60,071 nucleotides of DNA. It comes from an uncultured Candidatus Peribacteria bacterium (lineage in GTDB: Bacteria; Patescibacteriota; Gracilibacteria; Peribacterales; Peribacteraceae). The stretch's first letter is position 1. The number at the start of each line of letters is the position of its first letter. Below are positions 13,164 to 57,068 of the stretch, piece by piece. The notes beneath the pieces were generated by a model that was not told the DNA's origin, ran no database searches, and saw only the letters and a list, made by a program, of their open reading frames with translations. The position numbers and the translations under genes were made by a program. Location of the stretch: positions 1 to 60,071 of the forward strand of contig CAZEVM010000001.1 in NCBI GenBank assembly GCA_964515645.1. The letters are read 5' to 3'.

Positions 13164-14843
13164 ATGGCGGACAATATTGCATCGGCCACTCTGACGTCCT
13201 GCCAGGAGAAGGCACTCGACATGCTCGAGCGCGAGGGAAACATTTTCCTCACCGGCGCGGCCGGCACCGGCAAAAGTTTCCTCTTGAATCGCTATTTGGC
13301 CGATAAGCCCACGGAGCTCTTTCCCATCGTCGCCAGCACGGGCGCGGCGGCGGTGCTGGTGGGTGGCCGCACATTCCACAGTTTTTTCGGGCTGGGCATT
13401 ATGGAGGGCGGTATCGACGCGACGGTGGCCCGCGCCACGCGCAGTCCCAAATTGGTGCGGCGCTTGCTCACCGCGGCCTGTGTCATCATCGATGAAGTCT
13501 CGATGCTCTCGGGTACCACGCTGCTCGCCGCCGAACGGGTCGCCCGTACGGTGCGCGGCAAGAACGAGCCATGGGGCGGGCTCCGCATCATCGCGGTCGG
13601 CGACTTTGCGCAGCTGCCGCCGGTGACGCCCGGTGCGCAGGTGAAGGATTGGGCCTTCCTGCATCCGGTTTGGCGCGAGAGCAATTTCCAGCCGGCGCTG
13701 CTCTCTACCGTCATGCGCACGCGCGACGGCGAGTTCCTCGACGTGCTCAACCTGGTGCGGGCCGGCGCGGCCAACGAACAGGTGCGCGCTTTCCTTGAGG
13801 AACGTCTCGTAGACGATACGGAGTTCATCGAAGGGACGCGTCTCTACGCGCACCGCCATTCGGCCGAGAGCTACAACTTGCACCGTCTTGCTTCGCTCGG
13901 CGGCGAGGAGCGGAGTTTCCCGACGCTCTATGAAGGCGACGAGCGGTCGGTGGAGACGGCCAAAAAGTCGATGCCCGTGCCCGACATCCTCCAGTTGAAG
14001 AAGGGCGCGCTCGTGATGATGCGCAAGAATGATGTCTCCGAGGAGCGGCTCTTCGTGAACGGCAGTCTCGGCCATGTGACTGGCATTGCGGAGGAGGTGC
14101 TGACGATTCGCCTGCTCACCGGCCCGGAGATTGAGGTGGAGAAGCAGAAATTCTCTGCGCTCGACGGCGACGGGCGCGAACTCGCCGCCGCGTGGAACTT
14201 CCCCGTGACGCTGGCCTGGGCCACCACCATCCACAAGGCTCAGGGGACGTCGCTCGATTCGCTCATTGTCGATCTCTCGGCCCTCTGGGAGCCCGGCCAG
14301 GCCTACGTGGCCATGAGTCGCGTGCGTTCCGGCGCCGGCCTTCACGTGGAGCGTTGGCAGGCCTCATCCATCCGCGCCGAGCCGCTCGTCACGCAGTTTT
14401 ACGATTCGCTGGCAGTGGAGATGGAGCGCTACGTGCCGCGCGCGTTCTTCGCGCCCGTCGACCTGCGCCAGCGCGAGGCGGAGCCGGATGAAGAGCAGGA
14501 AGTTCGAAGGATGGCCAAACGCAGCGCTGCCAAGGCAAAGAAGCGCGCCACCGACTTGCTCAGTCTTGTGCGCGAACGCGCCTCCCTTCAGGAGATGGTC
14601 GACGCCACCGGCTATAAGGCTGATCGCCTGCCGCTGCATTTGGAGAAGCTGCTGCGCCAGGGGGAGATGTTCTCGCTTCAGCACCTCATCGAAGACGTGC
14701 CGTCGCTGGGTGCTATCCGCGAGGCCTTCGAGACCTGTGGCCTCGCTAAATTGAAACCGGCGTACGAGCACCTCCGTGAGGAAGTGGATTACGACACACT
14801 GCGCCTGGTGCGCTGCGCGATGCTGGCGGAACAGGCGGCCTGA
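13164..14843 (+). CDS. PIF1/RecD-like SF1 DNA helicase with C-terminal helical extension
   Basis: ORF 13128..14843. ATG 13164 lies 7 nt after TATCAT. Motifs GAAGTGKS, IIDEVSM, VGDFAQLPPV, TIHKAQGTSLD, AYVAMSRV. Confidence 0.85.
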   Translation: MADNIASATLTSCQEKALDMLEREGNIFLTGAAGTGKSFLLNRYLADKPTELFPIVASTGAAAVLVGGRTFHSFFGLGIMEGGIDATVARATRSPKLVRRLLTAACVIIDEVSMLSGTTLLAAERVARTVRGKNEPWGGLRIIAVGDFAQLPPVTPGAQVKDWAFLHPVWRESNFQPALLSTVMRTRDGEFLDVLNLVRAGAANEQVRAFLEERLVDDTEFIEGTRLYAHRHSAESYNLHRLASLGGEERSFPTLYEGDERSVETAKKSMPVPDILQLKKGALVMMRKNDVSEERLFVNGSLGHVTGIAEEVLTIRLLTGPEIEVEKQKFSALDGDGRELAAAWNFPVTLAWATTIHKAQGTSLDSLIVDLSALWEPGQAYVAMSRVRSGAGLHVERWQASSIRAEPLVTQFYDSLAVEMERYVPRAFFAPVDLRQREAEPDEEQEVRRMAKRSAAKAKKRATDLLSLVRERASLQEMVDATGYKADRLPLHLEKLLRQGEMFSLQHLIEDVPSLGAIREAFETCGLAKLKPAYEHLREEVDYDTLRLVRCAMLAEQAA

Positions 14844-17376: not shown

Positions 17377-18411
17377 TCACTGCCGGGGCGTTGCTGGGGT
17401 TGTCAGGCTCGTCCGGAAAAACTCGGCCGTCTTCCGCATGAAGTCATTCCATTGCGGGCCGAATTCGTGGGCTTCGCCGGGATACTCGACGTACGTCACC
17501 TCGCGGCCAGCGGCGGTGAGGTTCTTGGCAAGATCGTCGGACCACGCCTTGGGCACGTCCTTGTCGGCGCTGCCCTGGAAGAGCGTGATTGGCGCTTGAA
17601 TGCGGCTTAAGTACGTCTTCGGTGAGAAGAGGTCCCAGCGCTCAGGGTTCGTCTCGCGCGTGCCGAACTCGGCCACGGTGCGGTCGCCTTCGTCGCGCTC
17701 GGAACGCCAGCGCGAGAAGTTCTCCCACACGTCGGCGTTCACTGGGGCGTAGAGCACGGCGGCCGAGACGAGGTCGGGCCGGCCGGTGAGCACCGCGAGC
17801 GTGACGCCGCCGCCGAGCGAGTGGCCTATCATGCCGACACGTGAGGCATCGACACCAGGGAGGTTTGCGGCGCGCAGGGCATTCACCGCATTAGCGCTGT
17901 CCATCGCGTACTCCAGATTGGCGTCGTACACGTTCTCGGTCATCGGGCTTTCATCGGAGCCGGCGTGGCCGCGGTAATCGGTGTGCAACACCACGAAGCC
18001 CTGGCGCGCGAGATAGTCCTGCTCACGCTTCAGTCCCCTCCCCTGCGTGTAGACCGATGGCGCAATGTAGCCATGGTTCAGGATGAGCGCCGGGAATGGA
18101 CCGTCACCCTTGGGAATATTCAAGATGCCCGTGATCTTCAGGCCATTGCTGAGATAGTGGATGTTGTAGCGCGTGTAGGCCTCGTTCTCGACGACGACGG
18201 CATCGAGCGTCAGCCCGGTGCCGACGAGGCGCATCGTCGAGAAGTGGTCGATAGTGAGTGACGATGGCAGTTGCTCGAGCGGTGCTTCGGAAGATGACGA
18301 GTACGTGGATGCAGCACTGGCGCTCGACGAAGATCCGACTGACACTGGGTCGGTCGAAGGGGGTATGGTGCAGGCGGTGAGGAGGGCGGTGACTAGGATG
18401 AGGTGTTTCAC
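17377..18411 (-). CDS. secreted alpha/beta hydrolase (S9 / dienelactone-hydrolase-like lipoprotein)
   Basis: ORF 17377..18411, GTG start 6 nt after TACTCT. Lipobox LLTAC, nucleophile elbow GHSLGGG, late His in GEAHEF. Confidence 0.8.
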   Translation of the reverse strand: MKHLILVTALLTACTIPPSTDPVSVGSSSSASAASTYSSSSEAPLEQLPSSLTIDHFSTMRLVGTGLTLDAVVVENEAYTRYNIHYLSNGLKITGILNIPKGDGPFPALILNHGYIAPSVYTQGRGLKREQDYLARQGFVVLHTDYRGHAGSDESPMTENVYDANLEYAMDSANAVNALRAANLPGVDASRVGMIGHSLGGGVTLAVLTGRPDLVSAAVLYAPVNADVWENFSRWRSERDEGDRTVAEFGTRETNPERWDLFSPKTYLSRIQAPITLFQGSADKDVPKAWSDDLAKNLTAAGREVTYVEYPGEAHEFGPQWNDFMRKTAEFFRTSLTTPATPRQ

Positions 18412-18548
18412 ATCGTCAGAGTAGCAGTCCCCTCTTTTTAAACGGGGGTGTGTTCGAATGATGGCTGACTAGATTGCCACCATCGCGTTTCATTCACTGC
18501 AATTTGATTTCATCTTGTGGAAGTCATAAATCTGCACTTGGCTAAATG

Positions 18549-18577
18549 TTGACTAATCTGCGTAATATTACTATATA
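18549..18577 (+). promoter_or_regulatory. sigma70-type promoter of family gene 1
   Basis: TTGACT-17 nt-TATATA in an AT-rich patch. Confidence 0.5.
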
Positions 18578-18600
18578 TAAAGATGTTCTTTGAGAACATT

Positions 18601-18716
18601 GGCAAGGTTTAGAAGAGACAAGCACTCTACGCATCGCCAGTGCTTAGGGCGCTTGTCTCACTTCCGAGACAGCGCGGTAACTGATCATTCGGTATTCACC
18701 TGAAAGGAGTGCGACC
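18601..18716 (+). promoter_or_regulatory. conserved structured 5' leader, copy 1
   Basis: GGCAAGGTT, then stem GAGACAAGCAC(18615-18625)/GCGCTTGTCTC(18649-18659), then CATTCGGTATTCAC and an AAGGAG SD. Homologous to 20469-20625(c) and 50393-50515. Confidence 0.5.
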
Positions 18717-19280
18717 ATGAGTCGTACGCAACAACTGAAGTCCGAAGACGCGTCCTTGGGTCTGGCTCACGAGCACGTTTGCACTGATGCTGCGATGCAA
18801 GCCTTGATGGCAGCCGTCAAAAAAGGCGTCCAATGCGAGAACGGAGTCTACCGGTTCTTCGACCCTGGCATTCCGCTCGTCGTGCTGCGAGACCTGTTGG
18901 CTCGGCAAGAGAAACTTTTCTATGCCCAGGACTGGTACGACCAGTACGACTGGGCGAAGCGCGAGGATGCTCCGCAGGAGCGGACTCTCCGGATTCCGGT
19001 CGAAGGTTCCTTCAACAAGGCCTTCGCCGATCAGAAAAAGCTTCTGACTGCCGACGAAGAAGTGGCCTCAACGCGCACCGTCGCCATGTTCCTCGTCATC
19101 ACAGTGCTGTCGACTGGCAAGCGTCTCTTGCCGGATCGTTACGTGTGTTGCATCGACAAGGACTCGGACAGTAGTCGCGTCATCGTGGGCTTCTTCGATG
19201 CCGACGACCTGCACGTGTACTACAACGCGGATAAATTCTGCCATCCGCATATCGGGGTAGCAGCCGCTCGGAAGTCCTGA
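18717..19280 (+). CDS. hypothetical protein, paralog family member 1 (187 aa)
   Basis: ORF 18717..19280 with strong SD. Shares colinear blocks with 19767..20468(c) and 50516..51055. Confidence 0.7.
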   Translation: MSRTQQLKSEDASLGLAHEHVCTDAAMQALMAAVKKGVQCENGVYRFFDPGIPLVVLRDLLARQEKLFYAQDWYDQYDWAKREDAPQERTLRIPVEGSFNKAFADQKKLLTADEEVASTRTVAMFLVITVLSTGKRLLPDRYVCCIDKDSDSSRVIVGFFDADDLHVYYNADKFCHPHIGVAAARKS

Positions 19281-19356
19281 ACATTGACCTCTTGAAGGCT
19301 TGCCTTCTTGCCTGCCCGCCGAAGCTCGATTTGGAGTGAAGGTGGGAATTCTTACA

Positions 19357-19386
19357 CCTCCGCGACATTTTCGCGGAGGGTTTTTA
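19357..19386 (+). terminator. intrinsic terminator
   Basis: CCTCCGCGA-CATTT-TCGCGGAGG followed by GTTTTT. Confidence 0.75.
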
Positions 19387-19435
19387 AAAAGCACTCCATA
19401 CGTGCCTTACTCTTGCAAGCGGAGTGGCGGTTCCG

Positions 19436-19678
19436 TCTCGCGGCGATGAGGGAAGTTTGGTCGAACGCCGGCACATCGGCTGTGCCCTGCAGTAACGGCT
19501 CGCCTTGGTGCACGATGACGCCGGCATCCATGACGTAGATGCTTTGGGCAGAAGGTAGCGCCCACACGTTGCGATGCACCCCCACCTTGCGGAGGCACTC
19601 GGCGAGCAACGGAAGGCCCCCCTGTTTTCGGTCGATTGGCCATGGCGAAGCGTATGGCTGCCTGCAGTGTTTCTTGAG
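19436..19678 (-). pseudogene. C-terminal remnant of an ABC-transporter ATPase
   Basis: Own minus-strand translation: ...PIDRKQGGLPLLAECLRKVGVHRNVWALPSAQSIYVMDAGVIVHQGEPLLQG. It resembles the D-loop/H-loop/C-terminal region of ABC ATPases. Walker A and the signature motif are absent. Confidence 0.4.
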
Positions 19679-19705
19679 CTGTTATAGTCTCAGAATAGCA
19701 AGGTT

Positions 19706-19737
19706 CTGAAAAATACCCTCGCGACGGATCGCGAGGG
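19706..19737 (-). terminator. intrinsic terminator of family gene 2
   Basis: The minus strand reads CCCTCGCGA-TCCG-TCGCGAGGG followed by TATTTTTC. Confidence 0.7.
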
Positions 19738-19766
19738 TACAAATGTTTGTTGCTTGCACGTCAGAT

Positions 19767-20468
19767 TCAGATTTTCTGCGCGGCGGACAACCAGACACGG
19801 TCATTGCGGTAGCCATCTGCGTCGAAGTTGACGCACGCGCGACCATCGTGGACCGTAAATACGGTGCGGTAGTCGTAGTCGTCAGGCAGTATTTCCGCGC
19901 AACGGCACCAGTTGTTGTTCAAGAGATCGTTGTCGGTCGCCACCAGGTGGACGAGCAGTGCCGTCGTAGCAACAGTAACAGGCGCAGGCTGGAGTGTTTT
20001 GTCGAACGTCTTGAGGTGGCTCACCTGTTCATTCCAACTCTTCCCGTTCGAGTTGGGGACGTAGAGCAGGACTCTGTAGTAGCCGGGTTTCGCCGTCTCG
20101 ATCATCTTGTTGTCGTACCATTTATTGTCCTGCTGCATTCGCAAGCAGCTGCGGAGCGTGGTCAGATCCCATCCGCCGTAGTAGATGACGATTTCGCCGT
20201 CACGCGCTTTTGGCACGGGATCGCTGTTATTGCAGTGCAGACCGAGGAGGCGGCTGGTCATGGCAGCGCTGTAGACGATGCCGGTACCCATCGAAATGGG
20301 CTTCGCTGCGCCGGGAAACGCGGTCACGATGTGTTGCAGTTCACTGAGCTCTAAGTTGAGCATCTTTAGCCAGTTGTCGGGCGTGAGTCCGGCTTCTTGT
20401 AATCTCTTGAGTCCCGTCGTTATCTTTTTCTGCGGGAGACTCGTGAGGCTCGTACTTTTCGTCTGCAT
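19767..20468 (-). CDS. hypothetical protein, paralog family member 2 (233 aa)
   Basis: ORF 19767..20555. ATG 20468 (MQTKSTSL) is preferred because it has an AGGA SD and the upstream TTG start lies inside the leader hairpin. Confidence 0.7.
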   Translation of the reverse strand: MQTKSTSLTSLPQKKITTGLKRLQEAGLTPDNWLKMLNLELSELQHIVTAFPGAAKPISMGTGIVYSAAMTSRLLGLHCNNSDPVPKARDGEIVIYYGGWDLTTLRSCLRMQQDNKWYDNKMIETAKPGYYRVLLYVPNSNGKSWNEQVSHLKTFDKTLQPAPVTVATTALLVHLVATDNDLLNNNWCRCAEILPDDYDYRTVFTVHDGRACVNFDADGYRNDRVWLSAAQKI

Positions 20469-20625
20469 GATGAATTCCTGTACCCGTTGTACGGGCAAGT
20501 GTGGAATACCGATGGCCGTCGGCTCGGTCCGTCTCTCGGTTGGCACCAGAGACAAGCGCCCTAGGTATGGGCATACGCAGAGCGCTTGTCTCTTCTGAAT
20601 CTTGACGTTGCTGTGAAAGAAACAT
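20469..20625 (-). promoter_or_regulatory. conserved structured 5' leader, copy 2
   Basis: Minus strand: AGATGTTTCTTT...CAAGATTCAGAAGAGACAAGCGC...GCGCTTGTCTC (perfect 11-bp stem, 20549-20592), then CATCGGTATTCCAC. Confidence 0.5.
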
Positions 20626-20633
20626 CTATATCT

Positions 20634-20662
20634 AAAATATAATATTATTATTAATTAGTCAA
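20634..20662 (-). promoter_or_regulatory. sigma70-type promoter of family gene 2
   Basis: Minus strand TTGACT-17 nt-TATTTT in an AT-rich patch. Confidence 0.45.
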
Positions 20663-20725
20663 TATGCAACATTTCTGCACTTTTCGACTATCAGCAAAAG
20701 ACTCTGCTTTCTCGCAGAATGATCA

Positions 20726-20800
<75 letters not shown>

Positions 20801-23750: not shown

Positions 23751-23841
23751 GGGCGGTTCGCTCAGTTGGGCCCGGTCTTGCGAAGCGAGCCGGCAAATAA
23801 AAAGCATCGCGATGCTACGGCGTGTATTCTTTCACTCAAAC
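23751..23841 (+). repeat. duplicated tRNA-Val 5' half plus conserved GC hairpin (91 nt, directly upstream of tRNA-Val)
   Basis: 23751-23769 GGGCGGTTCGCTCAGTTGG matches 18/19 of tRNA-Val positions 1-19. It is followed by GCCCGGTCTTGCGAAGCGAGCCGGC-AAATAAAAAGC, near-identical to 28071-28106 at the tRNA-Ile locus. Confidence 0.6.
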
Positions 23842-27940: not shown

Positions 27941-28162
27941 GGGCCACTCGTTCAGTTGGGCCGACGGCGCGCGAGTGCTGGCGCTATTAAACGAGCGTGC
28001 TCGAACCAACTGATTCACTTCCCTCACGGGGTTCCTTTATGATGCGTACGTGGGCCAGTAGCTCAGTTGGGCCCGGTCTCGCGAAGCGAACCGGCTTATA
28101 AAAAAGCGTGCTCGAACCAACTGATTCACTTCCCTCACGGGGTTCCTTTATGATGCGTACGT
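27941..28162 (+). repeat. two tandem 111-nt units, each starting with a copy of the tRNA-Ile 5' half and ending with the tRNA promoter
   Basis: Unit 1 is 27941-28051 and unit 2 is 28052-28162. The 3' 57 nt are identical (GCGTGCTCGAACCAACTGATTCACTTCCCTCACGGGGTTCCTTTATGATGCGTACGT). Unit 2 starts with 19 nt identical to tRNA-Ile positions 1-19. Confidence 0.8.
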
Positions 28163-28239
28163 GGGCCAGTAGCTCAGTTGGTTAGAGCTCCGGACTTATA
28201 CACCGGCGGTCGATGGTTCAACTCCATCCTGGCCCACCA
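28163..28239 (+). tRNA. tRNA-Ile (anticodon UAU)
   Basis: Manual cloverleaf: acceptor GGGCCAG/CUGGCCC, D-arm GCUC/GAGC, anticodon stem CCGG(A)/(A)CCGG with A31-A39 mismatch, loop CUUAUAC, T-arm GAUGG-UUCAACU-CCAUC, CCA encoded. Confidence 0.8.
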
Positions 28240-50302: not shown

Positions 50303-50356
50303 CTCTGTAGAGCCAAAATCATTTTGTACGCAAAATGAATGGCTTTCTCTACAGAG
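50303..50356. other. long imperfect inverted repeat just after obg
   Basis: CTCTGTAGAGCCA..TCATTTTG-TACG-CAAAATGA..TGGC..CTCTACAGAG. No T-run follows. Confidence 0.5.
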
Positions 50357-50392
50357 ATCATTAAAATACGCCAAACGTCCTTTTTCAGCATA

Positions 50393-50515
50393 GGCAAGGT
50401 TCTTGAGACAGGCGCGGTGCGCATGGATCCGCTGGTGCGTAGCGCGCTTGTCTCAGAGTGTTTCTGAGCGGCCACGGTAGAACCGTGAACCATTATTCTC
50501 ATATGGAGAACCCCC
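50393..50515 (+). promoter_or_regulatory. conserved structured 5' leader, copy 3
   Basis: GGCAAGGTT, then stem GAGACAGGCGC(50405-50415)/GCGCTTGTCTC(50444-50454) with one G-U pair, an extended GC-rich distal helix, and a GGAG SD before ATG 50516. Confidence 0.45.
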
Positions 50516-51055
50516 ATGCACGACTCCCTCGTTTTCGACCTCTTTGAGACCCTCGGCATCGAACAGACTGCCGCAAAGAAGGGCCGGCGTTGCTCTCAGC
50601 GCACCCCCCTCGTCCTCCCCAAACCCACTGATGGATACATCACGATGGTGGTGCAGCGGCCGGTGACGTTCGAAGATATCCGCGCCTCCAACGTCGGCCG
50701 CGATCACATGAAGTCGCAGGACTGGTACGTCGGTAAGGACTGGTACAAACAGTCTATTCCCTCCGGCAACTGGCTCTTCCGCCTCATGCCCGACTCTCGG
50801 GGAAAGAACACGACGCTCATGCGTCCCCTCCTCCGCGATGGCGAACGCTTCCCCGGTCCGGCGATGAGCCTGGCTGTGACTCTGTTTTTCCGTGCTTCCG
50901 GTCTCGACCCGCTGCGAAACACCTTCCTCACGGTCGACCGCGCCGACGGCAACGGCTACGTGGTCCAAATCGCCGACAAGGCTCGCCTGGAAATCATCAC
51001 CCACCGCGACCTCGACGATCAGCTCTCCATTTCGGCCGCCGCTTTACGCGTCTAA
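50516..51055 (+). CDS. hypothetical protein, paralog family member 3 (179 aa)
   Basis: ORF 50516..51055. Colinear blocks shared with 18717..19280 and 19767..20468(c). Confidence 0.7.
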   Translation: MHDSLVFDLFETLGIEQTAAKKGRRCSQRTPLVLPKPTDGYITMVVQRPVTFEDIRASNVGRDHMKSQDWYVGKDWYKQSIPSGNWLFRLMPDSRGKNTTLMRPLLRDGERFPGPAMSLAVTLFFRASGLDPLRNTFLTVDRADGNGYVVQIADKARLEIITHRDLDDQLSISAAALRV

Positions 51056-52628: not shown

Positions 52629-54218
52629 TTAAACAGGCCGCTTCCATCCCCATACAGAATCCCATGTATACCCACTACCCAGTCTTTCAAATTTGGCAGA
52701 CCAATTCAGCCATTCGTTAGCCTTCTTTGTAAATTCCTCAAAATCAGTCATCTCGAAAACTGTTAGCAATAGCTTTCTGTAATCATCATACCATTCCGCA
52801 TTTTGCATTAATGGGATAACTCGTTCTTCATAAAATCGCCCATAATTCGGATATACCCAATGAGGGGCTCCGGGTTTGCCTTCGTCTAATTCCTGCTTCA
52901 TTTTCATGCAAAACAGCATGTTTACCTGGCAGCTTAAGTTTAAGAATTCTTCGTCGTTCAAATTACCCATTATTTCTTTCACAAGAAGATCTTTCTCGTA
53001 ACTCTTCCGCAATCTGTTAAACATGGAATCTGCGCCATGCAAAACATCCGGTGCAAAGAATGCGGCTGTTGACCAAATTCGTGTGGGCCTACGCTGATTG
53101 CCGTCACGCAGTTCTGTTCTGTAATTAATCAAGAAAGACAGTATGTCTCCTTTTTTTTCCTTAAGGGCGAAGATGCAAAAATAGTAGTAGGGGTTGTGCA
53201 GTATTGCTCTCGGAATAGATTTCCACGGAACCATTCGCGATGACGGCGCATGCATCCATAGCGCAGCAACATCTGCGAACTTATCAAGAACCATTTTTAA
53301 GCCATCCTTCCTGTCATATCTCACTGCATACAAACCAATCATAGTCAGGTTCAACATCTCACGCTGCATTTGCTCCACAGCTTCTCCTGCGTTGCTAGCC
53401 TCAGGGCTTTCAGCGGCTATCTTGGTTTCCCAGGTTTGTTTTAGATGAGAGATCTCTCGTTCAACCATGTCTTCCAAATTAAAACGATCGGTATCCGAGA
53501 AACTTCGGAGTTTTGAGACGATCTCTTCCCGAGTTACTGGCGGACGAACCACTCCAGTATGCTTTAGCACTTCAACTGAGCGCGCAGTGTCTTGAGACAG
53601 CTGCTCGGCCGCAGCATCAACATCTTTGCCGTGGCTCTTTTCCTTCACAAGCTCCCAGAACGTTTCCGTGGCGCCGAGCATTTGGGACATTCCCAGCATG
53701 AGGGTTTGTGAGTCGCCCTCAGGCTTCTTTTTGTAATTGTATTTGTGGGACTGTACTGACCAGAGGTGTTCCGTCACGGTACGAATCTGAATCTCACACA
53801 TGTATTCGGCCCCTACGTCTGTGCTGCTCACGACGATGTGGTGCCCCGTGTAGCCGTCCATCGTATCCTCGGGTGTGCTCTCCACGATGCGATAGCTGCC
53901 CTCCAAAAATGGAAGGAGGAGCTCGATCGCGCGTTGGCGGTCAGATCTGCAGTGACAGATCACACGGACCCCGGCAATGTCTTTGATGTCCCTAATGTCG
54001 GAAGTGGCAACGTTCGCAACCTTGGCGTAAACGGACGGGAAGTCCTTAATTTGCGGACGCATCGCGACCAAATCCATACGGGCACTCACCCCGTCGATGT
54101 CGACGGAAAGACGATGCTCCTCTAGATGGGAGCGAATATCGGCCTCGACCTTGCTCTGCAGGGCCCGATAGGACTCTGCGTATTGATCGTATTGCCGTCG
54201 CGCGTCGGCCTCTGTCAT
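52629..54218 (-). CDS. RelA/SpoT-like nucleotidyltransferase (small-alarmone-synthetase/toxSAS-like) fused to ~340-aa unknown C-terminal domain
   Basis: ORF 52629..54218. RPQIKDFPSVYAKV, DIAGVRVICH, DGYTGHHIVV and EIQIRTVTEHLW are the RelA_SpoT synthetase core motifs within the first ~190 aa. Confidence 0.8.
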   Translation of the reverse strand: MTEADARRQYDQYAESYRALQSKVEADIRSHLEEHRLSVDIDGVSARMDLVAMRPQIKDFPSVYAKVANVATSDIRDIKDIAGVRVICHCRSDRQRAIELLLPFLEGSYRIVESTPEDTMDGYTGHHIVVSSTDVGAEYMCEIQIRTVTEHLWSVQSHKYNYKKKPEGDSQTLMLGMSQMLGATETFWELVKEKSHGKDVDAAAEQLSQDTARSVEVLKHTGVVRPPVTREEIVSKLRSFSDTDRFNLEDMVEREISHLKQTWETKIAAESPEASNAGEAVEQMQREMLNLTMIGLYAVRYDRKDGLKMVLDKFADVAALWMHAPSSRMVPWKSIPRAILHNPYYYFCIFALKEKKGDILSFLINYRTELRDGNQRRPTRIWSTAAFFAPDVLHGADSMFNRLRKSYEKDLLVKEIMGNLNDEEFLNLSCQVNMLFCMKMKQELDEGKPGAPHWVYPNYGRFYEERVIPLMQNAEWYDDYRKLLLTVFEMTDFEEFTKKANEWLNWSAKFERLGSGYTWDSVWGWKRPV

Positions 54219-54270: not shown

Positions 54271-54378
54271 AGGTCTCTTCCTAGATCCCCTCTTGCGTCC
54301 GCAGTAGGGTGAAAACGTACCATGTGGGATTCGTTTGTTTTTAGCTGGTGGCCCCAGTCGGGACCAATACGAACCAAT
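54271..54378 (-). repeat. copy of the 75-nt tRNA-Phe-proximal arm plus degenerate tRNA-Phe 3' end (remnant A)
   Basis: 54271-54345 aligns with 56917-56992 (about four fifths identical by eye). 54346-54378 tggtggccccagtcgggaccaatacgaaccaat aligns with the tRNA-Phe 3' end. Confidence 0.65.
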
Positions 54379-56916: not shown

Positions 56917-56992
56917 GGTCTCTTCCTTGTTCCCTCTTGCGCTCGTAGTAGGGTAAAAACGTACAATGTGGGATACGTTTGCGATTTTTAGC
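56917..56992 (-). repeat. 75-nt arm immediately 3' of tRNA-Phe (includes tRNA terminator hairpin)
   Basis: The minus strand reads ...GCAAACGTA-TCCCACATTG-TACGTTTTTAC.... Duplicated at 54271-54345. Confidence 0.65.
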
Positions 56993-57068
56993 TGGTGGCC
57001 CAGATCGGGATCGAACCGATGACACCTCCCTCTTCAGGGGAGTGCTCTACCAGCTGAGCTACCGGGCC
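56993..57068 (-). tRNA. tRNA-Phe (anticodon GAA)
   Basis: Manual cloverleaf of GGCCCGGUAGCUCAGCUGGUAGAGCACUCCCCUGAAGAGGGAGGUGUCAUCGGUUCGAUCCCGAUCUGGGCCACCA. Loop CUGAAGA, CCA encoded. Confidence 0.95.

Follow-up and report, generated by a model that had tools for sequence, protein, structure and literature searches.

Three genes of the window carry the same leader

The window analysed here is a stretch of 60,071 nt from an uncultured Candidatus Peribacteria bacterium (GenBank assembly GCA_964515645.1, contig CAZEVM010000001.1, positions 1 to 60,071), which leaves about 19 kb of the source contig outside. Three of its genes, called here c1, c2 and c3, are each preceded by a copy of the same element. 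Comparison with homologues shows this element to have the organisation of a cis-acting structured 5' untranslated leader, about 130-135 nt long and placed behind its own predicted σ70-type promoter (Table 1). An initial annotation of this DNA had proposed three copies of a common promoter-and-leader architecture, two of them forming the ends of the 2.1-kb segment that carries c1 and c2.

When the window was searched with the pattern GAGACARGCRC-N(15-45)-GCGCTTGTCTC, matches were found at 18615-18659 (+), 20592-20549 (-) and 50405-50454 (+); the chance expectation is 0, as the pattern matched in 0 of 100 dinucleotide-preserving shuffles. A covariance model built from 57 homologues detected sense-strand copies only at 18575-18712 (+), 20633-20482 (-) and 50367-50511 (+), with scores of 110.7, 92.1 and 64.1 bits respectively, the next-best sense match reaching about 8 bits. 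The three proposed copies are thus borne out by both the pattern search and the model and, since the model recognises only these three in 60 kb, the element is not a ubiquitous repeat. All three copies point toward their own gene and lie 5' of it, which is not what the initial annotation had envisaged for a repetitive extragenic palindromic (REP)-like repeat, namely the lack of any preference for 5' untranslated regions (UTRs).

Alignment of the three regions revealed that the linker, the base of the long stem and a downstream CATYCGGTATTC block are common to all copies and that an AT-rich promoter is common to copies 1 and 2. Most of the details given in the initial annotation were found again: the shared linker (GGCAAGGTT or TCAAGATT); the stem base with an A.C mismatch in copy 1, perfect pairing in copy 2 and a G.U pair in copy 3; the CATTCGGTATTCAC / CATCGGTATTCCAC block of copies 1 and 2; and the boundaries of the leaders, the gene behind copy 2 beginning at the ATG at 20468. 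The description of the upper stem had to be revised. The AAGCACT/AGTGCTT pairing proposed for copy 1 differs from the conserved fold, and the distal part, said to be wholly different among the copies, is instead a common irregular helix (UCUGCGYAU...GUGCAUAGR) with covarying pairs and two fixed unpaired positions. Each copy folds as a long hairpin; compared with shuffled sequences, the z-scores of stability are -3.4 for copy 2 and -4.1 for copy 3, and the fold of copy 1 is not clearly more stable than that of its shuffles (z -1.65).

Table 1. Features of the three leader copies, their genes and the surroundings of c1 and c2 (window coordinates)
Feature	Position	Strand	Description
Copy 1 promoter	18549..18577	+	-35 TTGACT 18549-18554, 17-nt spacer, -10 TATATA 18572-18577; read from sequence
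Copy 1 P1	18582..18600	+	GATGTTC-tttga-GAACATT; predicted transcription start; RNAfold minimum free energy structure; 7/7 helix pairs compensatory
Copy 1 linker J1/2	18601..18614	+	GGCAAGGTTTAGAA; conserved as CGKCAAGRTTYAGG
Copy 1 P2	18615..18659	+	9-bp base, fixed mismatch at position 10 (A.C), 5-bp segment, second fixed mismatch, apical helix
Copy 1 leader 3' part	18660..18716	+	holds the repeat of the P2 5' arm, P3 and the last hairpin
Copy 1 partial repeat of P2 5' arm	18667-18676	+	GAGACAGCGC
Copy 1 P3	18680-18693	+	ACTGA-tcat-TCGGT
Copy 1 last hairpin	18697-18711	+	CACCT-gaaa-GGaGTG; overlaps Shine-Dalgarno AGGAG 18705-18709
Gene c1	18717..19280	+	187 aa; diversity-generating retroelement (DGR)-type variable-protein family
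c1 3' UTR	19294..19379	+	hairpin GAAGGC-tt-GCCTTC 19294-19307
c1 3' UTR terminator-like hairpin	19357-19379	+	CCTCCGCGA..TCGCGGAGG followed by T-run
Gene c2	19767..20468	-	233 aa; family member, predicted C-type-lectin-like C-terminal domain
Copy 2 promoter and leader	20469..20662	-	-35 TTGACT 20662-20657, -10 TATTTT 20639-20634
Copy 2 P1 and P2		-	P1 about 20626-20604; P2 20592-20549
Copy 2 P3	20523-20508	-	GCCGA-cggcca-TCGGT
Copy 2 P4	20495-20483	-	CCCG-tacaa-CGGG; Shine-Dalgarno GGA 20478-20476
Copy 3 promoter		+	weak, ATGGCT-17-TAAAAT
Copy 3 leader	50367..50515	+	P2 50405-50454 (G.U at stem position 7); P3 CACGG-tagaa-CCGTG 50473-50487
Gene c3	50516..51055	+	179 aa; divergent family member
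9-nt direct repeat, left copy	18531..18539	+	TCTGCACTT
9-nt direct repeat, right copy	20674..20682	+	TCTGCACTT
tRNA-Gln(UUG)	20726..20800	-	borders c1-c2 segment; peptidase gene on other side

Anatomy of the leader

The covariance model recognises 70 sense copies in Peribacteria, the three of the window and 67 in other loci, and these share one order of elements: a σ70-like promoter, a first hairpin (P1), a linker, a long hairpin (P2), a third hairpin (P3) and often a hairpin at the ribosome-binding site. The consensus of the promoter is usually TTGACA-17-TAnnnT, and 45 of 65 homologous leaders match σ70 at 8 or more of the 12 positions. P1 is a hairpin of 5-8 bp at the predicted +1, its first pair lying 6-8 nt from the end of the -10 box in 36 leaders; its loop is conserved as TCTTTCAGA and its helix is paired in 84.7% of the cells across 67 distinct copies. 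It should be noted that RNAalifold missed P1 on the first MAFFT alignment, which was misaligned there, and that P1 was found by inspection and with the covariance model. The linker that follows is conserved as CGKCAAGRTTYAGG in two alignments (A5 and A6).

P2 starts with a base of 9 bp, GAGRCAAGC/GCTTGYCTC. Above the base comes a position that is almost never Watson-Crick (A.C, U.C, C.C and others), then a C-G pair and four further pairs, one of them a conserved G.U. Another fixed mismatch, in most copies C.A, separates these from the last four pairs; the tip is variable and measures from 4 to more than 30 nt. The linker 3' of P2 often repeats the 5' arm (GAGaCAAGyCC). P3 has a stem of 4-6 bp and a loop that begins with CGG in 31 of 43 cases, and the usual last hairpin, P4, is found beside or over the Shine-Dalgarno sequence, the start codon lying 46-84 nt 3' of P2. 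In one clade, which has a G-C pair at position 4 of the P2 base, the part behind P2 is built differently. No T-run follows the long stem, and the view of the initial annotation that the stem is not a terminator agrees with terminator scans of the three window leaders, in which no terminator-like site formed by the whole P2 stem was found. Inside a leader the scans gave a single site (copy 2, 20573-20557, -), a fragment of P2 with five pairs and without a true T-run, and the genes have terminators of their own at their 3' ends. Upstream of copy 3, a 10-nt inverted repeat (CTCTGTAGAG...CTCTACAGAG, window 50303-50354) is located between the obg stop codon and the weak promoter of this copy.

Such an anatomy could reflect intrinsic signals of stability and processing that act without any regulator, P1 serving as a stabiliser and P2 as an RNase III-type site that would set a constitutive expression level. 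P1 begins at the predicted +1, the irregular P2 helix extends over about 18-20 bp or more and has, with its fixed internal mismatches, a shape typical of RNase III-type substrates, and no common switch element was found. However, structure alone does not need a near-invariant P2 base, linker CAAGRTT and P1 loop TCTTTCAGA across distant genomes, and we consider this explanation quite improbable.

The fold is conserved on the sense strand

Pairing statistics were calculated on a model-based alignment of 67 distinct copies (25 pairs, 1668 cells). In this alignment, which was fitted to the covariance model, 93.2% of the cells form standard pairs, and in 17 of the 25 pairs both partners have changed. 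For none of five measures did any of 500 column shuffles equal the observed value, and pairing fell to 33-52% when the partners were slid by 1-3 columns. An independent MAFFT alignment gave comparable figures, with 93.5% of the cells paired and 11 pairs showing double changes. The initial annotation had named covariation among more aligned copies as a check on its proposal that a structure, and not plain sequence repetition, is selected in the promoter-plus-leader unit; the proposal is supported by these values.

The changes at individual positions are of the kind expected for RNA. At stem position 4 the pair is A-U in 33 copies, G-C in 22, G.U in 12 and A.C in 0, though the search left any base there; position 7 is A-U, G-C or G.U; and P3 keeps its pairing through 23 distinct stem sequences. 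Over all pairs, 225 cells are G.U or U.G and 28 are A.C or C.A, a ratio of about 8:1 that favours a hairpin on the sense strand over a palindrome in duplex DNA or an antisense transcript. Taken together, these alignments show conservation of the leader fold at what appears to be the RNA level.

Two additional pairings were considered and not retained. Pairing of the linker GGCAAGG with a downstream CCGAGCC was dropped, its variants showing no consistent compensation, and in a possible kissing interaction of the P1 loop (CUUUCAG) with the Shine-Dalgarno region (CUGAAAG) the cognate pairs were no better than non-cognate ones.

The downstream genes form one family related to DGR targets

The products of c1, c2 and c3 and their alignment gave no match in Pfam, NCBIfam, PHROGs or PDB sequences. 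Pairwise, the three paralogues are barely alignable, with 23-25% identity (23% with an E-value of 0.59 for c1 against c2), whereas leaders 1 and 2 share a 54-nt arm at 76%. These comparisons show that, by sequence identity, the leader is far better conserved than the coding sequences. All-against-all BLASTP and a family hidden Markov model (HMM) nevertheless join c1, c2 and c3 into one family through their homologues, so that the genes, which the initial annotation had treated as belonging to three unrelated loci, are divergent paralogues of a single family without a Pfam entry. The repeated leader is therefore a family-specific 5' UTR duplicated together with its gene. Orthologues of c1 in loci L005 and L016 are 59-61% identical to it, and an exact-sequence look-up of c1 in a gene collection found no identical product. 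A database search with c2 returned 66 hypothetical proteins, those with a named source coming from Peregrinibacteria/Patescibacteria or from unclassified bacteria.

The association between leader and family holds in both directions. Among 74 leaders, 55 precede an open reading frame (ORF) recognised by the family HMM, and most of the others are found at contig ends, before distant members (L003 and a divergent copy in L010) or before genes of a second small family; two weak leader matches (L040 and L097) stand before an ORF that is either unrelated or of unclear relationship. Seen from the genes, a leader is present upstream of 55 of the 60 family ORF segments. The five leaderless segments comprise the translated template repeat of L033 (see below), a segment truncated at a contig end and three segments, two of them in L020 and the third in L055, that may be template repeats. 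The second small family, encountered in L051, L065, L074 and L078, comprises proteins of about 170-220 aa, most of them with an N-terminal membrane helix, and has a similar C-terminal ...LWL...RKSDS end, in which ...LWL..W..PDD.W....VFR.RKSD can be read; three leaders are present in each of L074 and L078 and two in L065, and no reverse transcriptase (RT) or template repeat was seen on these short contigs. These counts show that, across many genomes, the leader is tied to the DGR-type family and to one further small family.

The link with DGRs comes from a predicted structure and from relatives in other metagenomes. An AlphaFold2 model of c2 (mean predicted local distance difference test, pLDDT, 87.5) had as its top Foldseek matches C-type-lectin-like domains and the C-terminal fold of EgtB, with modest E-values of 0.003-0.1. 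The C-type-lectin-like fold is the usual scaffold of DGR variable proteins. In locus L033-35 (scaffold ERZ23491336_246), a family gene adjoins RT and Avd genes, and the final 118 nt of the L033 family gene recur 375 nt downstream with 86% identity. Fifteen of the 17 differences between these repeats are at an adenine of the downstream copy, which identifies the pair as template repeat and variable repeat of a DGR. The same signature, together with RT and/or Avd, was found in L017, L020, L025, L037, L055 and L061, the Pfam domains RVT_1 and bAvd being confirmed for L017. In L025 one template serves two targets, both of which bear leaders, and L026-28 retains only an Avd remnant. Judged from these relatives and from the predicted fold, the family is the target of DGRs, encoding their variable proteins with a C-type-lectin-like fold.

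Within the window no RT and no significant Avd match (tblastn) were found, nor any template repeat for c1, c2 or c3. The 3' end of c1 resembles the end of variable repeats (..GCCGCTCGGAAGTCCTGA) and is similar to that of the L033 variable repeat. By eye, its 3' UTR (window 19281-19380) and positions 6452-6530 of L033 have in common the ending ..GCCGCTCGGAAGTYCTGA, a short hairpin and a hairpin CCTCCGCGA..TCGCGGRGG. These similarities in sequence suggest that c1 is, or was, a DGR target.

The layout of the Peribacteria DGRs is unusual. Measured from start to start, the template repeat is 450-490 nt downstream of the variable repeat; both are on one strand, with the target's terminator-like hairpin between them, and avd is inverted (L017 3995-5850, L037 4719-6767, L055 1040-3125, L033 5833-7336). 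The avd gene is found between the template repeat and the RT gene in L017, L037 and L055, and in L033 the RT genes are upstream of the targets. In these four loci the template repeat is therefore outside any operon of avd, template repeat and RT gene.

We also considered that the leader itself might be an RNA part, or a transcription-coupled part, of the DGR, acting as a handle on target transcripts or genes for the RT-Avd complex or another factor. Every gene that bears a variable repeat in the DGR loci has a leader, including both targets of one template in L025 and L033, the RT gene of L033 starts back to back with a leader promoter, and the second, different small protein family has the same leader. 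If this were true, the leader would link target expression to mutagenic homing or define which paralogues can be rewritten. We know of no 5' element of this kind in any DGR, and several observations are difficult to reconcile with such a handle. The leader lies 600-700 nt upstream of the variable repeat, and in the Bordetella phage system target recognition operates via elements at the 3' end of the variable repeat. The RT and avd genes and the template repeats are without the motif, many leader-bearing paralogues, including all three of the window, have no template repeat, RT or Avd nearby, and P2-like hairpins occur before unrelated genes in other Patescibacteria. We therefore give this explanation a low probability.

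Distribution of the leader in Peribacteria

Several search routes led to the same element. A scan of one genome per species gave 25 loci, about 14 of which are in metagenome-assembled genomes (MAGs) of Candidatus Peribacteria or Patescibacteria and show the same surrounding architecture, the remaining loci being unrelated palindromes. A metagenome scan in which stem positions 4, 7 and 10 were left free added about 30 loci. Loci that were reached through protein homologues alone (L026, L029, L030, L033, L036, L037 and L038) also bear the leader, often several in tandem, so that the leader is not merely a product of the DNA search pattern. Stem bases that depart from the pattern were met among the model matches, for example GAGACAGGCC/GGCCTGTCTC in L037 and AGATCAGCGC/GCGCTGGTCT in a lower-scoring copy of L010. 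Tandem arrays of three or four leader-gene cassettes are found in L029 (2110-4100), L030 (1450-5000) and L038 (1950-8537); the array of L029 begins right after a tRNA gene and its upstream regions are near-identical.

With Rfam 15, only tRNAs scored above the gathering thresholds in the whole window, no relevant match was obtained over 18400-20800 at E-values up to 10, and none at E-values up to 1 in six other leader loci and in the DGR locus L033. A phage origin was not retained: a loose scan of viral sequences gave chance matches only, and the specific pattern found a single IMG/VR contig that resembles a Peribacteria fragment. This contig (L221, UViG_3300032737_000190), the only 'viral' one with a leader, carries a typical leader and family gene at 13340-13600 and is probably a Peribacteria fragment or a prophage-like region classed as viral.

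A hairpin like P2, with the same base and internal features and also behind a promoter, was observed in L002 (5242-5289), a Saccharibacteria MAG, and in L097 (2277-2325). These hairpins precede unrelated small ORFs (of 97 aa and 76-92 aa) and are without P1 and the linker.

The c1-c2 locus

The inverted repeat that brackets c1 and c2 consists of the two promoter-leader units of these genes, each of which has its own terminator, and copies 1 and 2 face each other because c1 and c2 are convergent. The initial annotation had regarded the units as the inverted ends of a module and had placed an ABC-ATPase remnant between the genes (19352-19609). Neither proposal was supported in this form: the segment contains simply two convergent paralogues, with no transposase or integrase inside, and the remnant was not confirmed by Pfam or PDB sequence searches. 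Moreover, in MAG CAZYNU01 c1 and c2 have their orthologues on separate contigs, hence the pair is not a conserved unit. The annotation was right in placing the segment next to tRNA-Gln, as it is located between a peptidase gene and this tRNA gene. In the close relative L222 (1-960), whose peptidase gene has 83% nucleotide identity with that of the window and where synteny extends beyond, tRNA-Gln is found about 860 nt from the peptidase gene and unrelated small genes lie between them; this closest relative thus shows a replacement and not a clean empty site for the 2.1-kb segment. The window contains just two occurrences of the 9-nt sequence TCTGCACTT, one lying 9 nt and the other 11 nt outward of a -35 box, and about 1% of control flank pairs matched as well (p about 0.01). 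The c1-c2 locus is variable, and acquisition of the pair as a block is possible, the 9-nt repeat being only suggestive.

These features bear on whether the element might act as DNA, either as a palindromic operator at or after +1, as a single-stranded recombination hairpin like attC, or as the inverted ends of a 2.1-kb mobile module. The palindrome of P1 covers the start site and three GAGACAAG words lie just downstream of it; leader-ORF-leader-ORF arrays exist in L029, L030 and L038; fixed unpaired positions and a variable centre recall attC; and c1-c2, situated beside a tRNA gene in a locus whose content is different in a close relative, is flanked by a 9-nt direct repeat. However, the arms of P2 are spaced by 15 to 45 nt with the interior still paired, unlike a dimeric operator, and the excess of G.U over A.C (225 versus 28) is unexpected for a duplex site. 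The orientation of the copies is fixed, each with a promoter of its own and a start codon at a defined distance; there is no attC R-box (GTTRRRY), and neither the segment nor the loci showed an integrase or transposase; and the orthologues of c1 and c2 are unlinked in MAG CAZYNU01. An action as DNA is, in our estimation, highly improbable.

Other repeats were noticed near tRNA genes of the window. A segment of 85 nt that includes the 3' end of tRNA-Phe (56993-57068, -) is repeated 2.6 kb away (54288-54372 and 56932-57019, 80-88% identity). The repeats bracket DNA of 36-47% G+C in a genome of about 61% G+C, the low-GC stretch extending from about 51.3 to 57 kb, and this stretch has the appearance of an island that integrated at tRNA-Phe, the repeats being att-like. 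By eye, a RelA/SpoT-like motif is visible in the neighbouring ORF (52629-54218). In addition, 88 nt upstream of and into tRNA-Ile are tandemly duplicated (27983-28070 and 28094-28181, 95% identity), with a partial extra 5' end of the tRNA, and a related 53-nt segment is found upstream of tRNA-Val (23751-23803, compared with 28052-28104).

Possible function of the leader

We find it reasonably probable that the leader is a cis-acting post-transcriptional control element of the variable-protein family, and any single output mechanism for it considerably less so. The P2 helix, the linker and the P1 loop are nearly invariant, which suggests that a trans-acting factor recognises them. Most likely this factor, in the simplest case a protein, would dock at the lower stem of P2, whose sequence is invariant and whose mismatches are fixed; common to all paralogues, it would make them one regulon. 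Binding of the factor might alter access to the ribosome-binding site, either by way of the hairpin that often covers the Shine-Dalgarno sequence or because the P2 3' arm pairs instead with the 5'-arm repeat further downstream. It might alternatively alter the stability of the mRNA, through the 5'-terminal hairpin P1 or through cleavage inside the long P2 helix. In 29 of 52 leaders most of the Shine-Dalgarno sequence is paired. The P2 3' arm is more complementary to the linker behind it than in shuffled sequences, a weak enrichment (-10.5 versus -9.06 kcal/mol, 0 of 200), and this alternative pairing is strongest in copy 1, where the P2 3' arm and 18667-18676 reach -16.6 kcal/mol.

The same observations could be explained by a riboswitch, in which a small molecule would be bound and translation switched by means of the alternatively pairing P2 3' arm together with the hairpin close to the Shine-Dalgarno sequence. 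A conserved, covarying 5' UTR of several hairpins, with invariant nucleotides in its linkers and at its fixed internal mismatches, would fit, as would two possible partners of the P2 3' arm that exclude each other and a Shine-Dalgarno sequence occluded in about half of the copies, and a riboswitch without a match in Rfam would form an orphan class. Yet the fold is a row of separate hairpins, for which no multi-helix junction or pseudoknot is supported, and the test of the P1 loop against the Shine-Dalgarno region gave no cognate-specific signal. It is the sequence of the regular helix that is most conserved, a feature more often met in sites bound by proteins; the genes under control code for binding proteins and not for transporters or enzymes that would indicate a ligand; and the expression platform is not conserved among clades. 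We consequently regard a riboswitch as unlikely.

Post-transcriptional control by a trans-acting factor has points against it as well. The factor is a postulate, and the leader RNA, its start site and any processing are all deduced from the DNA. Occlusion of the ribosome-binding site is predicted in only about half of the copies, and the part behind P2 differs among clades, so that no single common expression platform is evident from the alignments. The P2-like hairpins of L002 and L097 indicate that the function of P2 may be more general in Patescibacteria. Moreover, hairpins of single-stranded DNA also tolerate G.T, so the excess of G.U, as a property of the alignment, is not strictly decisive against a DNA hairpin of the sense strand. 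Finally, several invariant bases of the P2 base were set by the search patterns and their apparent invariance is in part a matter of ascertainment; the protein-anchored loci show the same P2-base bases as the pattern-found loci.

To our knowledge, bacteria have no natural system other than DGRs for the targeted hypermutation of proteins, and DGRs are very frequent in the Patescibacteria with their small genomes. The leader is a probable regulon signal for variable proteins of the DGR type and, in an uncultivated phylum, a candidate target of an RNA-binding regulator; it is also a marker for finding family genes that have diverged beyond recognition. About 70 sequences are enough for a curated model of a new RNA family, which is absent from Rfam.

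Comparison with known systems

In the Bordetella phage BPP-1, the target-recognition elements are the initiation of mutagenic homing (IMH) sequence and a GC-rich hairpin/cruciform, which lie at the 3' end of the variable repeat and act in DNA. The present system resembles BPP-1 in that hairpins accompany DGR targets, and the 3' end and 3' hairpins of c1 are still similar to those of a confirmed target. The leader, by contrast, is at the 5' end of the gene, behind a promoter, and has the pairing statistics of an RNA.

With protein-binding autoregulatory leaders, such as those of ribosomal-protein genes, the element shares sequence-conserved helices, irregular mismatches, a hairpin near the ribosome-binding site and specificity for a set of genes. 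It differs from ribosomal-protein leaders in that its genes encode hypervariable lectin-like proteins and not an RNA-protein machine, its binding protein is hypothetical and no Rfam leader matches it. REP repeats are likewise imperfect palindromes present in several copies per genome, but the leader has three copies in 60 kb, in a fixed orientation 5' of one family and inside a larger unit of several hairpins. Integron attC sites are distinguished from the leader by its stem base, GAGRCAAGC/GCTTGYCTC, its own promoter and its position on the 5' side of single and convergent genes, and no integrase was found among the called genes of the leader loci.

Among RNAs associated with DGRs, the RT-10 motif is a spacer RNA between the template repeat and the RT gene, to which a role as primer of cDNA synthesis has been ascribed (Weinberg et al. 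2017, PMC5737381). Both RT-10 and the leader are conserved structured RNAs that emerged from comparative analysis and are tied to DGRs. They differ in that the leader is the 5' UTR of the target gene and is also found on paralogues without a nearby RT. RT-10 was the only DGR-linked RNA motif found in our literature searches, which returned neither a report of leaders in front of DGR targets nor studies of riboswitches in Peribacteria. The orphan riboswitch candidates and gene-associated RNA motifs from surveys of this type include the DUF1874 motif, which repeats before consecutive ORFs and has been interpreted as attC-like (Weinberg et al. 2017, PMC5737381). Like these motifs, the leader is restricted to a lineage, lies in the 5' UTRs of one gene family, forms arrays before consecutive ORFs and shows covariation. 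Its sequence and fold are different from those of DUF1874, and it has its own promoter and a fixed 5' position even at single and convergent genes. Taken together, these comparisons place the element as a new family of a known kind, the structured cis-regulatory 5' leader, whose link with DGR variable proteins is new as far as our literature searches reach.

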